DNA from: an uncultured Acholeplasmataceae bacterium
GTDB taxonomy: Bacteria; Bacillota_I; Bacilli_A; ML615J-28; CAG-698
DNA length: 64,000 nt
NCBI GenBank assembly: GCA_963542825.1
Contig: CAUTZD010000001.1
Span: forward strand, 22,307-86,306
Direction: 5' to 3'
A program made the translations under genes and the position numbers. The notes beneath the pieces were generated by a model that saw only the letters and a list, made by a program, of their open reading frames with translations, had not been told where the DNA came from and did not search any database. Below are positions 39,919 to 42,401 of the stretch, one piece after another (within the stretch, counting starts at the first letter, position 1; every line of letters starts with the position of its first letter).

Positions 39919-41439
39919 GTGAAAATAGTGAACGATTTTTGGCGTGATTGCCGACAAATAGTTAAAATGTTAATAGATGCAGGCTACGATGCTTACTTCG
40001 CTCGTGATGCCGTCATTGATCGTATTAGTGAGCGTGAAATCTCTTTAATTTGGATTGTGACAACTGCTAATATTACAGTACTTAAAAAGATGTTTCCTGA
40101 ATCACTTGAATTATCTAATTATAAAGATACGATTATTGTTAATAAAGACGGTAGAACTTTCGTTCTCGAATCGCTCAAGTTTGACTTAACAAACATTGCT
40201 CCTGATCCTAAAGGACACTATTCAACAGTAATTGTCGATGGTCTTGGAAACATGGAATATACAATTGATTCAATTATCATCAGTTATAGCGATAAAACCT
40301 TTGATCCATTCCTTGGTCTTGAAGATTTAAATAAACACAAACTAGTTTTTATTGGTGACACACAAGTACGGATCGAACACGATCCTTTTATCATCTTAAA
40401 GGGTTTAAGATTGATGGCTAAATATGGGTGCACGTTTAGTAGTAAAGACGAAAAGATTATCAAAAAGTTTGCTCATGTTTTAGTAAGGCTATCATTTAAA
40501 GATTATGCTTTTTTCTTAGAAGAGATTACGAAAGGTGAATACGCTCGTTTAGCTTTTAAGAAAATTTATAGTCTTGATGTTTATAAATACTTACCACAAT
40601 TTAAAGATGCTTTAGAGATTATTAGTAGAAGAAGCATAACATTAAAATTTGAAGAAGTTTTGCTTCTTACTTCTGTTGTCAACGATTTTATTGATCCCGA
40701 GTATGCTTTCTATATTAGTAACTACGATACTTTTAAAAAGGCAAAGCACCTTGCAATTGCTAATCCTGCTTGCAAGTATGATATGCTTGAACTTTTTACA
40801 TATGGGCTTGATGTCGCACTACTTGCTAATAAAATGAACTATTTGATTGGCTTAAGTTCACTTAAGACAGGACAAATTAAACGTAAATTTAATAAGCTCA
40901 AAATTAAAAGAATTTGCGATCTTGTCTTTAAGGGTGAAGACATTTTGAAAATCACCGACCAAGATGGTGATTATCTTAGTGAGCTTGTTGACGAAATTGC
41001 TTTTCTTGTTTTAAAAGGAAAATTACGAAACGACTATATGGAGATTAAAGATTTCGTTTTAAAAAGACTTCCGGAACTTGGGATTAATATTATTAGCGAT
41101 GAAAAATACCAACCAATTTATCAGTATGATGAAGACAGTTTAACTGATATTCAGGATATTGATCAGGAATCTTTCATGAAAAATTTGATGGAAGCAACTG
41201 ATGAAAAGGAAGTTTATGATGCTTTGAAAAAGCAAGGGCGAATTTTTAAGAAGATTGTTTTAAACAGTAATCCTACTTTTACTCGCAACCAGGAAATTGA
41301 TTATTTCATTTTCCAAAAGATTGATGATGTTTTGCGAGCAAACTTTGTTAAACAGCTTCGCCCAAAGCGCTATGAAATAATGCAGAATTTATTTAGAGAT
41401 TATGTGAAATTTTTTAATCAACTCGAAGGAAGTAAATAA
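39919..41439 (+). CDS. CCA-adding enzyme/poly(A) polymerase-family paralog with substituted catalytic residues (predicted inactive nucleotidyltransferase)
   Basis: It aligns with B. subtilis Cca over head and neck (LIDAGYDAYFARDAVID vs LIEAGHQAYFVGGAVRD; ISLIWIVTTA vs IGDVDIATDA; HDPFIILKGLRLMAKYGCTF vs EDALRMLRAVRFMSQLGFTL). GG is replaced by RD, and both Asp of DxD by L/W. GTG start; 506 aa. Confidence 0.6.
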   Translation: MKIVNDFWRDCRQIVKMLIDAGYDAYFARDAVIDRISEREISLIWIVTTANITVLKKMFPESLELSNYKDTIIVNKDGRTFVLESLKFDLTNIAPDPKGHYSTVIVDGLGNMEYTIDSIIISYSDKTFDPFLGLEDLNKHKLVFIGDTQVRIEHDPFIILKGLRLMAKYGCTFSSKDEKIIKKFAHVLVRLSFKDYAFFLEEITKGEYARLAFKKIYSLDVYKYLPQFKDALEIISRRSITLKFEEVLLLTSVVNDFIDPEYAFYISNYDTFKKAKHLAIANPACKYDMLELFTYGLDVALLANKMNYLIGLSSLKTGQIKRKFNKLKIKRICDLVFKGEDILKITDQDGDYLSELVDEIAFLVLKGKLRNDYMEIKDFVLKRLPELGINIISDEKYQPIYQYDEDSLTDIQDIDQESFMKNLMEATDEKEVYDALKKQGRIFKKIVLNSNPTFTRNQEIDYFIFQKIDDVLRANFVKQLRPKRYEIMQNLFRDYVKFFNQLEGSK

Positions 41440-42401
41440 TGGCAAAAATAAAAGATTTTGATTTTAATGATGAAGCTGTAATTACAGCAAAAGTATCATC
41501 GCTTTCCGAGCGTAAAACAACTGCTGGCTCGCCTTATTTTTCTTTTCACGTTTTTGATGGTGAGGAAAAGATCGAAGCGAAAATTTGGAATATAACTCCC
41601 GAAATCCAGGATACTTTAGTTGCGGGCGACGTTTATATTTTTAAGGGGCGCATCAAAGAGTATCAAGGGAAGAAGCAGTTTAATATTGTTAGTCTTGAGA
41701 GACTTGATGAAACACAAAACGATTTATCAAGCTTTTATGAGTTTGCACCAGTATCGCTTGTTGAGCTTAAAGAACTCATTTATGAATATATTGATAAAAT
41801 TGAAAATTCTGTTATCAGAGAAATAACGAAAGAAGTAATTAAACAAAACGAAGATAAATATTTTTTATTTCAAGCTGGTGTTAGTCTTCATCATGCGTAT
41901 TTTTCAGGACTTGCATATCACTGCTATTCGATGCTTGATTTAGCTGATGTTCTTTTAAAGCGTTATGAAGGAATCAACAGCGACCTTGTATATGCAGGTA
42001 TCATCCTTCATGATGTTGGAAAGGTTGTGGAGTTTTCAAAGGCTAATGGGCCAAGTTATACAGATAGTGGCAACCTTATGGGTCATTTATTTATTGGCGC
42101 TAATATGGTTGAAGAAGCTGCTATGCGGCTTGGATATACAGATACTGAGGAAGTATTAAATTTAGTTCATATCATTCTTTCCCATCATGGTGATCCTGAT
42201 AAGGGAGCAGTTAAACCGCCAAAAACTCTTGAAGCGGTCGTTGTTCATTTGTGTGATTACGTTGACTCGCGGCTTGCAGGACTCACTGTCAGCATGCGTG
42301 ATGTTGAGCCAGGGAAATATTCAGAACCCCTTTTAATGTTTGAAAAAGAGACTTTTCGCAAGGCTAATTTAAAATTACCGGTTGCGAAAAAGAAGAAATA
42401 A
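41439..42401 (+). CDS. yhaM: 3'-5' exoribonuclease YhaM (OB-fold plus HD domain)
   Basis: An N-terminal OB-fold (VYIFKGRIKEYQGKKQFNI) followed by HD-domain motifs (ILHDVGK; LSHHGDPDKGAVKP; HLCDYVDSRL). Confidence 0.8.
   Translation: MAKIKDFDFNDEAVITAKVSSLSERKTTAGSPYFSFHVFDGEEKIEAKIWNITPEIQDTLVAGDVYIFKGRIKEYQGKKQFNIVSLERLDETQNDLSSFYEFAPVSLVELKELIYEYIDKIENSVIREITKEVIKQNEDKYFLFQAGVSLHHAYFSGLAYHCYSMLDLADVLLKRYEGINSDLVYAGIILHDVGKVVEFSKANGPSYTDSGNLMGHLFIGANMVEEAAMRLGYTDTEEVLNLVHIILSHHGDPDKGAVKPPKTLEAVVVHLCDYVDSRLAGLTVSMRDVEPGKYSEPLLMFEKETFRKANLKLPVAKKKK

Follow-up and report, generated by a model that had tools for sequence, protein, structure and literature searches.

To our knowledge, CCA-adding enzymes are regarded as universally catalytic, and nucleotidyl transfer in the Pol-beta superfamily, a two-metal reaction, needs the metal carboxylates of the active site. 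The closest described relatives of the protein analysed here are the class II CCA enzymes (Bacillus stearothermophilus, PDB 1MIV; B. subtilis-type Cca, NCBIfam PRK13299), with which it shares the head–neck–body–tail arrangement, collinearity over ~385 residues and the PF13735 tail domain. The split CC- and A-adding enzymes (for example, the A-adding enzyme of Aquifex aeolicus, PDB 1VFG/4WC2), which are structural neighbours of our model, are class II members narrowed by evolution; they are still polymerases with complete metal sites, whereas for the protein described here a total loss of chemistry is predicted.

The evolutionary setting is that of the Mollicutes/Tenericutes, in which all tRNA genes template CCA (PMC4014445; PMC5143459), the CCA enzyme has been termed 'obsolete' where tRNA genes do so (Grosjean et al. 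2014, PMC4014445), and the enzyme disappeared only once the Acholeplasma/phytoplasma branch had split off (PMC4014445). That work reports loss of the gene; here, in contrast, selection has kept it as a predicted non-enzyme, an outcome absent from the paper. The adjacent gene encodes the widespread nuclease YhaM, which is still puzzling in its native role, its partners and its limited trimming. YhaM is able to replace tRNA and rRNA processing enzymes, with a blocking partner having been speculated (PMC11347170), and has been suggested as a back-up of 3' processing when RNase R is absent (Grosjean et al. 2014, PMC4014445). In the YhaM/Cbf1 literature on B. subtilis, S. aureus, S. pyogenes and S. 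pneumoniae, we found no description of a yhaM–cca linkage. Our literature search likewise found no published description of a dead CCA enzyme paired with yhaM and no report of a catalytically dead CCA-family member kept under selection, in line with the earlier note on this DNA, which knew of no described example.

The cca homologue, its active site and the yhaM junction

The locus lies in the window (the whole 64-kb stretch of DNA that was analysed), in which the relatives of UvrB are Acholeplasmataceae/Bacilli MAGs and the best matches of OppD and OppF are Mycoplasma-type models. The cca homologue is an open reading frame of 506 aa on the forward strand (39919..41439; GTG start at 39919, TAA stop at 41437–41439). 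Its true start is probably the alternative GTG at 39928–39930, which would give 503 aa, because a Shine–Dalgarno GAGGTG (39916–39921; whole element 39916..39930, forward strand) lies 6 nt before that codon and homologues begin ~3 residues after the 506-aa reading (alignments start at query residue ~4–5). Downstream, yhaM (41439..42401, forward strand, 320 aa) begins within the stop codon of the cca homologue: TAA (41437–41439) and ATG (41439–41441) have one base in common ('TAATG'), and the yhaM Shine–Dalgarno GAAGGAAG (41425–41432) sits within the 3' end of the upstream gene (41425..41441 with the overlap, forward strand), so that the translational adjacency reported earlier can be read directly in the sequence. 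The divergent neighbour, yigZ (IMPACT/UPF0029 by Pfam and NCBIfam; 39226..39828, reverse strand), is a conserved synteny anchor, for which no functional part is claimed. No Rfam matches were found within the window. The same gene row holds a further dead enzyme, an MBL-fold hydrolase (45464–46192) without HxHxDH.

Similarity of the protein to Cca is far above chance by profile, sequence and structure searches. The CCA tRNA nucleotidyltransferase model PRK13299 matched at E=5.6e-38, with residues 6–382 collinear with positions 4–392 of 396 in the model (131 bits, which does not reach the curated threshold of 290); phmmer against PDB 1miv gave E=1.2e-17; and the AlphaFold model (pLDDT 86) aligned with 1miv in Foldseek at E=3.5e-20 over 398 columns (TM 0.73, target-normalised). 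Pfam detected only the tail domain (PF13735, E=6e-9, 36.4 bits against a cut-off of 27), and the PF01743 head domain was not reported even at E<=1. The description of a full-length, collinear class II homologue in the earlier note is therefore upheld by PRK13299, 1miv and Foldseek, and the fold check that it proposed succeeds with PRK13299, AlphaFold/Foldseek and PF13735 but not with PF01743, by which the head goes undetected. As modelled, the protein has the class II head–neck–body–tail fold. The head (~aa 1–140, approximate borders; 39919..40338, forward strand) keeps a predicted Pol-beta-like fold with the catalytic residues gone, its beta/alpha elements being modelled at pLDDT ~80–94; the neck, body and tail (~aa 141–385; 40339..41073, forward strand) are modelled at pLDDT 92–98, and the family-invariant residues lie mostly in the PF13735 tail (G296, A303, N307, I320, L327 and N371, in invariant columns); and a C-terminal extension (~aa 386–506; 41074..41436, forward strand) comprises an acidic linker followed by helices (pLDDT 42–78). 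Relative to class II CCA enzymes, the protein thus adds a helical extension of ~120 aa and is encoded in an operon with yhaM.

It also differs from them in having other residues in place of GG, the three metal carboxylates, RRD and EDxxR, and in falling below both the PRK13299 and PF01743 cut-offs. On the forward strand, the GG of motif A reads R29-D30 (codons CGT GAT, 40003..40008); L43-I44-W45 (40045..40053) replaces the DxD metal carboxylates (D40/D42 of 1miv); V82 (40162..40164) replaces the third catalytic carboxylate (E79 of 1miv), in a column that is E in 83/86 canonical sequences and that lacks the carboxylate throughout the degenerate clade described below; N111-M112-E113 (40249..40257) replaces the RRD of motif B; and the EDxxR..R of motif D, which contains the nucleotide-templating residues, reads H154 D155 P F I158 .. 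K161 (H154 to I158 at 40378..40392), with only the Asp of EDxxR retained. Overall, 1/12 key catalytic residues remain. Three independent alignments (phmmer, MAFFT and hmmalign) agreed on the placement of the substitutions; they bear out the replacement of GG by RD and of the DxD carboxylates by Leu and Trp, as first noticed, and the erosion is greater than was then described because the third carboxylate and motifs B and D are also lost. Misaligned motifs, with GG and DxD lying elsewhere, were considered and rejected, because all three alignments and the structural comparison gave the same answer. The evidence supports a full-length class II homologue predicted to be without the catalytic apparatus.

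Family, gene order and selection

An exhaustive search of cluster representatives (50% identity) placed the degenerate forms (~47 representatives) in one clade, sister to 16 intact long-form enzymes. Catalytic residues form a graded natural series from 12/12 down to 1/12, and PolyA_pol (PF01743) scores fall stepwise from 110–123 bits in intact members through 87, 62 and 34 bits to none in the window copy, the most eroded member of the family. The intact sister clade consists of long-form CCA enzymes encoded directly upstream of yhaM in related gut and digester Bacilli (457–566 aa; for example, P0019, P0039 and P0094; loci L008, L057, L064, L082 and L092), which have the same C-terminal extension and the same position 5' of yhaM as the window protein but differ in retaining 11–12/12 catalytic residues and scoring 110–123 bits on PF01743; judged by their sequences, they are presumably active. 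In many intermediate members, E/D still stands in the DxD motif, the RD of motif B and EDxxR are preserved and GE or GD replaces GG; some of these members may retain nucleotide binding. The extension is missing from ordinary CCA enzymes of 385–404 aa; in the yhaM-linked long-form lineage, into which the window protein fits, it spans ~100–180 aa with a conserved helical end, and L/K-Y positions within it are conserved across both intact and degenerate clades. One yhaM-linked form of 406 aa is without it.

Linkage to yhaM was near-invariant. The nuclease gene lay directly downstream of the CCA-family gene in 6/6 protein-based look-ups, including that of the intact P0019, and, among metagenome yhaM loci of the lineage with enough upstream sequence (found with a YhaM alignment as the query), a CCA-family gene lay immediately 5' of yhaM in 72/73, the exception (L094) having a pullulanase gene in that place. 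Stop/start spacing between the two genes ranged from -10 to +62 nt in relatives, and the CCA-like proteins across yhaM-linked loci were only 21–34% identical. By comparison, we take cca and yhaM to be unlinked in B. subtilis. The arrangement of yigZ divergent from cca–yhaM is found with intact enzymes in related genomes (P0019/L008 and 12 non-redundant metagenome loci) and with degenerate forms in the clade of the window protein, the yigZ neighbour recurring in L003, L006, L009 and L011. In the YhaM tree, a single branch has all 12 intact loci on one side and all 35 degenerate loci on the other, with none out of place. The label 'paralog' used in the earlier note is consequently not supported: in related genomes the same place is taken by intact long-form cca, and synteny and the YhaM tree identify the gene as a positional orthologue of the long-form enzyme native to the lineage. 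No second CCA-family ORF was found within the 64-kb window or in ~95 related loci, and a scan of genome contigs made with the window protein alone returned only an irrelevant Nealsonbacteria cca. Look-ups in named or long contigs with UvrB as the anchor reached no cca–yhaM pair.

The downstream protein proved to be the OB-fold/HD nuclease YhaM, as had been proposed (PF01336, OB fold, 7.4e-8; PF01966, HD, 1.2e-14; NCBIfam YhaM, PRK13480, E=8.6e-69, residues 21–310 against model positions 22–311 of 314). Its score of 232 bits does not reach the equivalog cut-off of 460, which marks it as a divergent member. Its metal ligands are intact: H151, H152, H161, H191, D192, H216, H244, H249, H250 and D273 (the HH, HD, H, HH and D columns) are invariant among four members of the lineage, and in its OB fold, HD domain and preserved ligands the protein resembles the YhaM/Cbf1 proteins of B. 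subtilis, S. aureus, S. pyogenes and S. pneumoniae.

A copy of the cca homologue from another sample (P0001, locus L002), 97% identical, allowed selection to be measured. This independent assembly carries the same substitutions and is identical to the window at the motifs, so that they are not peculiar to one strain; an assembly or strain artefact was rejected on this ground. Between the two copies there were 82 synonymous and 17 non-synonymous changes, giving a dN/dS of 0.042 overall (head 0.074, neck 0, body 0.057, tail 0.023 and C-terminal extension 0.039), compared with 0.019 for yhaM and 0.047 for a neighbouring ABC ATPase. Every domain of the protein is under strong purifying selection. 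A pseudogene was rejected in view of the dN/dS of 0.04.

From intact long forms to degenerate forms, conservation drops from 0.683 to 0.477 in the head and from 0.623 to 0.473 in the neck, compared with 0.503 to 0.449 in the body and 0.525 to 0.503 in the tail; the loss is concentrated in the head and neck, and the body and tail are barely changed. Many conserved Lys positions appear in the degenerate clade, and the window protein departs from several of the clade's basic or conserved positions (G29, R33, K140, K149, K186 and K284 are lost).

A possible non-catalytic partner of YhaM and its rivals

We favour the reading, to which we give roughly an even chance, that the lineage's own cca has turned into a pseudoenzyme, maintained by selection as a non-catalytic, RNA-binding partner of YhaM. 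The ancestor, in an Acholeplasma-like group of Bacilli, would have possessed a long-form CCA enzyme of ~500–560 aa that ended in a helical C-terminal extension and shared a two-gene operon with YhaM; the metal-binding triad would have been lost once, in one sub-lineage, with the third carboxylate predicted to have gone before the others, and the remaining nucleotide-binding site eroded stepwise afterwards, with the window protein as the presumed end point (GG, DxD, third carboxylate, RRD and EDxxR all gone). If the tRNA genes of this group template CCA, as all Mollicutes tRNA genes do, CCA-adding catalysis would be dispensable; a search for tRNA genes, made to check for such templating, found none in the window or ~95 related loci. 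The protein may have been retained because its well-conserved body and tail still bind tRNA or tRNA-like RNA, and the dead Cca would then act with YhaM on RNA 3' ends, either by delivering substrates to the nuclease or by sitting on the acceptor end and setting where trimming stops, with the C-terminal extension as a candidate contact module. Such an accessory role is plausible and agrees with the observed pattern of conservation. Because base-reading residues and several clade-conserved basic residues have been lost from the window protein, its mode of RNA binding may differ from that of the family, and the MBL-fold protein, as a second dead enzyme in the gene row, makes a special role less convincing, since it shows that this organism tolerates or accumulates active-site loss.

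Much of the same evidence would serve a tRNA binder that works independently of YhaM (a tRNA chaperone, 3'-end protector or sensor), for which the selection and conservation data are equally suitable and the adjacency would be inherited operon structure. Such adjacency could persist by operon inertia, and L094 has a YhaM without a CCA-family neighbour. However, the pairing has been kept in 72/73 loci despite the 21–34% identity of the CCA-like proteins, and in most pairs the stop codon of the first gene overlaps or almost touches the start codon of the second, which argues for co-expression at a fixed ratio; we regard independence from YhaM as rather doubtful. A sub-functionalised paralogue, with a canonical cca elsewhere in the genome performing the chemistry and the duplicate having taken on a non-catalytic task, would find some encouragement in the plentiful ordinary short CCA enzymes in databases, but we consider it unlikely. 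Against it stand the position of the gene, which is that of intact long-form cca in sister genomes; the division into an intact and a degenerate sister clade, in agreement with the YhaM tree; the lack of any other CCA-family ORF in the window and the ~95 related loci; and published work according to which genomes of the Mollicutes type encode CCA in their tRNA genes and can dispense with the enzyme (PMC4014445; PMC5143459).

Two further readings concern the active site itself. The intermediates with E/D still in the DxD motif, RD and EDxxR preserved and GE/GD for GG raise the idea that the protein is still an enzyme, with a rebuilt active site (for example, with an acidic residue at the second Gly of GG) or a different chemistry. 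We find this very improbable for the window protein, in which Leu, Trp and Val have taken the place of the three carboxylates that Pol-beta two-metal chemistry requires, GG, RRD and the templating Arg have been lost and PF01743 is undetectable. Decay of a functionless relic on its way to loss would match a catalysis that is presumably unneeded, the presence of a second dead enzyme nearby and the fate of the gene in Mollicutes past the Acholeplasma/phytoplasma branch (PMC4014445), yet the 506-codon frame is intact, its dN/dS of 0.04 is on a par with that of housekeeping neighbours and full-length homologues have been kept across a clade of ~47 clusters (50% identity), which leaves this reading scarcely credible.

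A more specific proposal, which we advance only tentatively and hold to be possible rather than probable, extends the favoured partnership with YhaM to a two-protein tRNA 3'-end machine. The dead Cca would be the RNA-recognition subunit, docked on the tRNA elbow and acceptor arm and holding YhaM through its C-terminal extension, and the nuclease would remove 3' trailers and halt at the templated CCA. If true, this would account for tRNA maturation in Acholeplasma/phytoplasma-type bacteria, which are reported to be without RNase R and RNase Z; YhaM, with its physiological substrates and short-range 'nibbling' unexplained, would gain a defined partner; and the intact cca–yhaM operon of sister lineages would represent the ancestral trim-and-repair version.

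Meaning for CCA enzymes and reductive evolution

If the favoured reading of a selected, non-catalytic partner of YhaM is correct, the near-invariant cca–yhaM operon would tie YhaM to tRNA 3'-end metabolism by gene context, and the 12/12 to 1/12 series would provide material for the study of active-site decay with the scaffold preserved. Reductive evolution near the Mollicutes would then not be just the deletion of an 'obsolete' enzyme, as one lineage would have converted the enzyme to a non-enzyme. Its retention would point to a second, non-catalytic function, in RNA or partner binding, that is perhaps common to active CCA enzymes.

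An eroded CCA-adding-enzyme homologue next to yhaM

The gene immediately upstream of yhaM (39919..41439, + strand; a 506-aa ORF with a GTG start) had been described in the earlier note as a full-length class II CCA-adding-enzyme homologue with every catalytic motif substituted, and both parts of that description held. Its product matches NCBIfam PRK13299 (E=5.6e-38; residues 6-382 collinear with model positions 4-392 of 396; 131 bits against a cut-off of 290 bits) and, by phmmer, the Bacillus stearothermophilus class II enzyme 1miv in the PDB (E=1.2e-17). An AlphaFold2 model built from a 45-sequence family alignment (mean pLDDT 86) returned only class II CCA/A-adding enzymes as top PDB matches (1miv: E=3.5e-20, TM 0.73 on target, 398 aligned columns). 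Of the CCA-enzyme Pfam domains only the tail domain, PF13735, passed; a Pfam search did not detect the head domain PF01743. Three independent, agreeing alignments (phmmer to 1miv, MAFFT of 150 homologues, and hmmalign to a profile built from 86 canonical enzymes) place R29-D30 at the GG pair and L43-I-W45 at the DxD (D40/D42 of 1miv), the RD and Leu/Trp replacements already noted, and reveal erosion beyond them at the third carboxylate (E79 of 1miv; here V82), RRD (N111-M112-E113) and EDxxR..R (H154-D155-P-F-I158..K161), with 1 of 12 key catalytic residues kept. The carboxylates are required for two-metal nucleotidyl transfer in the Pol-beta-type superfamily and, since they are replaced, polymerase activity would not be expected, in line with the note's 'dead' enzyme.

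Translation probably begins at a second GTG (39928), giving a 503-aa protein, because a strong GAGGTG (39916-39921) lies 6 bases 5' of it and homologue alignments begin at residue 4-5. The translational adjacency to the co-oriented yhaM (41439..42401, + strand, 320 aa) was borne out: the last base of the TAA (41437-41439) is the first base of the yhaM ATG, and the yhaM ribosome-binding site, GAAGGAAG, is located within the 3' end of the CCA-like gene. As proposed, Pfam recognises PF01336 (an OB fold) and PF01966 (an HD domain) in the yhaM product; this protein matches NCBIfam YhaM over its full length (E=8.6e-69; 232 bits, below the equivalog cut-off of 460 bits), its HD-type His/Asp columns are all invariant among lineage members, and it is predicted to be a YhaM-type 3'-5' exoribonuclease.

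The pair is preceded on the opposite strand by yigZ (IMPACT family, by family match) and followed directly by a 973-aa ORF (42440-45361, + strand) whose product is anchored in the membrane at its N-terminus and matches no Pfam or NCBIfam family. The C-terminal region of this protein holds an 'FGYHVF' motif that, from its appearance, may be parvulin/PrsA-like, and relatives have similarly unassignable large ORFs (911-1261 aa) in its place. This gene may be transcribed separately, given a promoter-like site ahead of it (42382-42410); a terminator-like hairpin (45366-45393) comes after it.

Selection on the CCA-like gene

Another sample (ENA ERZ21659627) yielded a copy with 97% identity (protein P0001, locus L002) that has identical substitutions and identical neighbours, which rules out an assembly artefact as well as the strain artefact raised as a concern in the earlier note. 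The two copies differ at 82 synonymous and 17 non-synonymous sites, a dN/dS of 0.042 for the whole gene (yhaM, 0.019; neighbouring ABC ATPase, 0.047; yigZ, 0.125), with 0.074 in the head, 0 in the neck, 0.057 in the body, 0.023 in the tail and 0.039 in the C-terminal extension. Reading the stripped active site as that of a functionless relic is highly improbable: gene decay is contradicted by the overall ratio and by constraint in each domain, and constraint on every domain argues that the protein is functional.

Across the degenerate clade to which the window protein belongs, column conservation is 0.477 in the head, 0.473 in the neck, 0.449 in the body and 0.503 in the tail, compared with 0.683, 0.623, 0.503 and 0.525 in long-form enzymes with intact catalytic residues (intact long forms). 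Canonically invariant positions have become variable (D43, D45, E82, R87, R94, D108, R111, E154, D155, R158 and R161), lysines are strongly conserved at 12, 16, 140, 149, 186, 210, 211, 223, 284, 322, 330 and 338, and a tail signature (G296, A303, N307, I320, L327 and N371) is near-invariant. Class II enzymes grip tRNA at the elbow and along the acceptor/TΨC arm with body and tail; conservation there, with catalytic positions free to vary, fits lost chemistry and retained RNA binding. The window protein is the extreme case in the clade, with the tail signature present and several head and neck basic residues lost. Intact and degenerate yhaM-linked forms share a C-terminal extension (an acidic linker and helices, with a conserved K-Y at the end) that ordinary CCA enzymes lack, as does one yhaM-linked subgroup (406 aa).

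An ancient cca-yhaM operon and the probable stepwise erosion of its enzyme

Searching 1.8 billion cluster representatives exhaustively with HMMER yielded 1682 matches. The closest ~47 (21-34% identity, 470-725 aa), whose catalytic residues are eroded in part or entirely, form a single clade in a neighbour-joining tree. Its sister comprises 16 long-form enzymes (457-566 aa) with all key residues intact, and ordinary CCA enzymes (385-404 aa) fall outside both. PF01743 scores drop stepwise from 110-123 bits in intact long forms through 87, 62 and 34 to none in the window protein. Many intermediates have "G[ED]..E.[ED]" yet keep RD and EDxxR, and the third carboxylate is absent from all degenerate members. 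A rebuilt active site in the window protein is very unlikely. The least eroded members (P0002 in L003, 4712-6385, and L039, 2374-4077) keep GG, RRD and EDxxR, with D-L-I-D replacing DxD and Ile at the third carboxylate, and may mark the first inactivation step.

All five family members looked up by protein share one gene row: yigZ on the opposite strand, the CCA-family gene, yhaM overlapping or within ~20 nt, and after it large proteins that match no family, an MBL-fold hydrolase, rlmH, uvrB and mnmA. This order also holds in the window, but rlmH was not identified there; the intact enzyme P0019 likewise has an overlapping yhaM directly 3'. When metagenomes were scanned with an alignment of YhaM, a CCA-family ORF ended -10 to +62 nt from the yhaM start at 69 of 80 loci; three had a truncated ORF matching the family C-terminus, seven had too little upstream sequence to judge, and one (L094; contig Ga0265297_10036945, 2-3032) had a pullulanase gene instead. 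This last, the only related yhaM locus without an upstream CCA-family gene, clusters with the window sequence on the YhaM tree, both on long branches. Intact long forms (474-576 aa) lie directly 5' of yhaM in L008, L057, L064, L076, L078, L082, L091 and L092, and intact cca-yhaM pairs also occur in human-gut loci L066-L089; sources overall are gut and digester metagenomes. The CCA-like gene and yhaM are an ancient, nearly invariant operon.

Classed by 12 key residues, 28 loci were intact (11-12 of 12) and the others ranged from 10 down to 1. A tree of YhaM alone separated 12 non-redundant intact from 35 degenerate loci by one branch, with none misplaced. The shared gene position and single-branch split indicate that the window gene is a positional orthologue, derived from an active cca that was linked to yhaM in the ancestor, and that the metal site was lost once, with erosion continuing afterwards. 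The term 'paralog' used in the earlier note is therefore not upheld: the gene occupies the position of the intact yhaM-linked cca, and no second CCA-family gene was found among all ORFs of the window or of any retrieved related locus. That a real cca lies elsewhere in the genome is unlikely.

A non-catalytic partner for YhaM?

The window has a GC content of ~34%, with ORFs open under the standard genetic code. Its nearest UvrB sequences outside the species are just 59-61% identical, and the few that are named come from MAGs labelled "Acholeplasmataceae bacterium" or "Bacilli bacterium". The Opp transporter genes (5635-10128, + strand; OppF enlarged to 736 aa) have Mycoplasma mycoides syn1.0 OppC/OppD/OppF as best models, a Mollicutes-like trait in a standard-code organism. 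In a single 818-aa ORF (29942-32398, + strand), a GdpP-type c-di-AMP phosphodiesterase, complete with PAS, GGDEF-like, DHH and DHHA1 domains, runs in frame into an entire ribosomal protein L9 (N- and C-terminal domains at aa 671-816); the ORF would be either a real gdpP-rplI fusion or the product of a lost stop codon. At the conserved site of the YycJ/WalJ-like MBL-fold hydrolase, a 242-aa ORF (45464-46192, + strand) has SGGSEKS in place of HxHxDH and its other metal-ligand columns replaced; Pfam gave it no match, and its equivalents in L003, L006, L009 and L012 match Lactamase_B. It is apparently the second dead enzyme encoded in this row of genes, and suggests an organism generally permissive to active-site loss.

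According to Grosjean et al. (2014, PMC4014445), CCA is encoded in all Mollicutes tRNA genes and the CCAase "became obsolete", being lost at the node that follows the Acholeplasma/phytoplasma branch; templating by all Tenericutes tRNA genes was reported independently (Ardell & Hou 2016, PMC5143459). No tRNA genes were found in the window or the retrieved lineage loci, and templating is here a statement from the literature. YhaM may make up for absent RNase R in phytoplasmas (Grosjean et al. 2014, PMC4014445), and in S. aureus it can partly replace tRNA/rRNA processing enzymes, trimming only 1-6 nt in vivo, with a blocking partner raised as a speculation (2024 study, PMC11347170).

The window protein is a CCA-enzyme orthologue that is full-length, correctly folded and stripped of its catalytic residues, and it is under strong purifying selection; a non-catalytic orthologue maintained by selection is very probably the right reading. 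The accessory role put forward in the earlier note is plausible. More tentatively, and a little short of an even chance, the protein may act as a partner of YhaM: with CCA templated, catalysis would no longer be needed, the protein would be kept for continued binding of tRNA-like RNA, and the two might act jointly on 3' ends, by substrate delivery or stop definition, with the C-terminal extension as candidate contact site. The retained body and tail might instead serve an RNA-binding role independent of YhaM, which, with the two genes so constantly joined, we consider rather unlikely.

The earlier note knew of no described example, and our literature search agreed, finding no publication on dead CCA enzymes or cca-yhaM linkage; even the active-enzyme operon appears undescribed. 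A branch of pseudoenzymes within the class II CCA-adding enzymes and an unremarked cca-yhaM operon, as read entirely from sequence analysis of uncultured organisms, would be new; they would surprise tRNA-processing specialists and offer concrete experiments on the role of YhaM.
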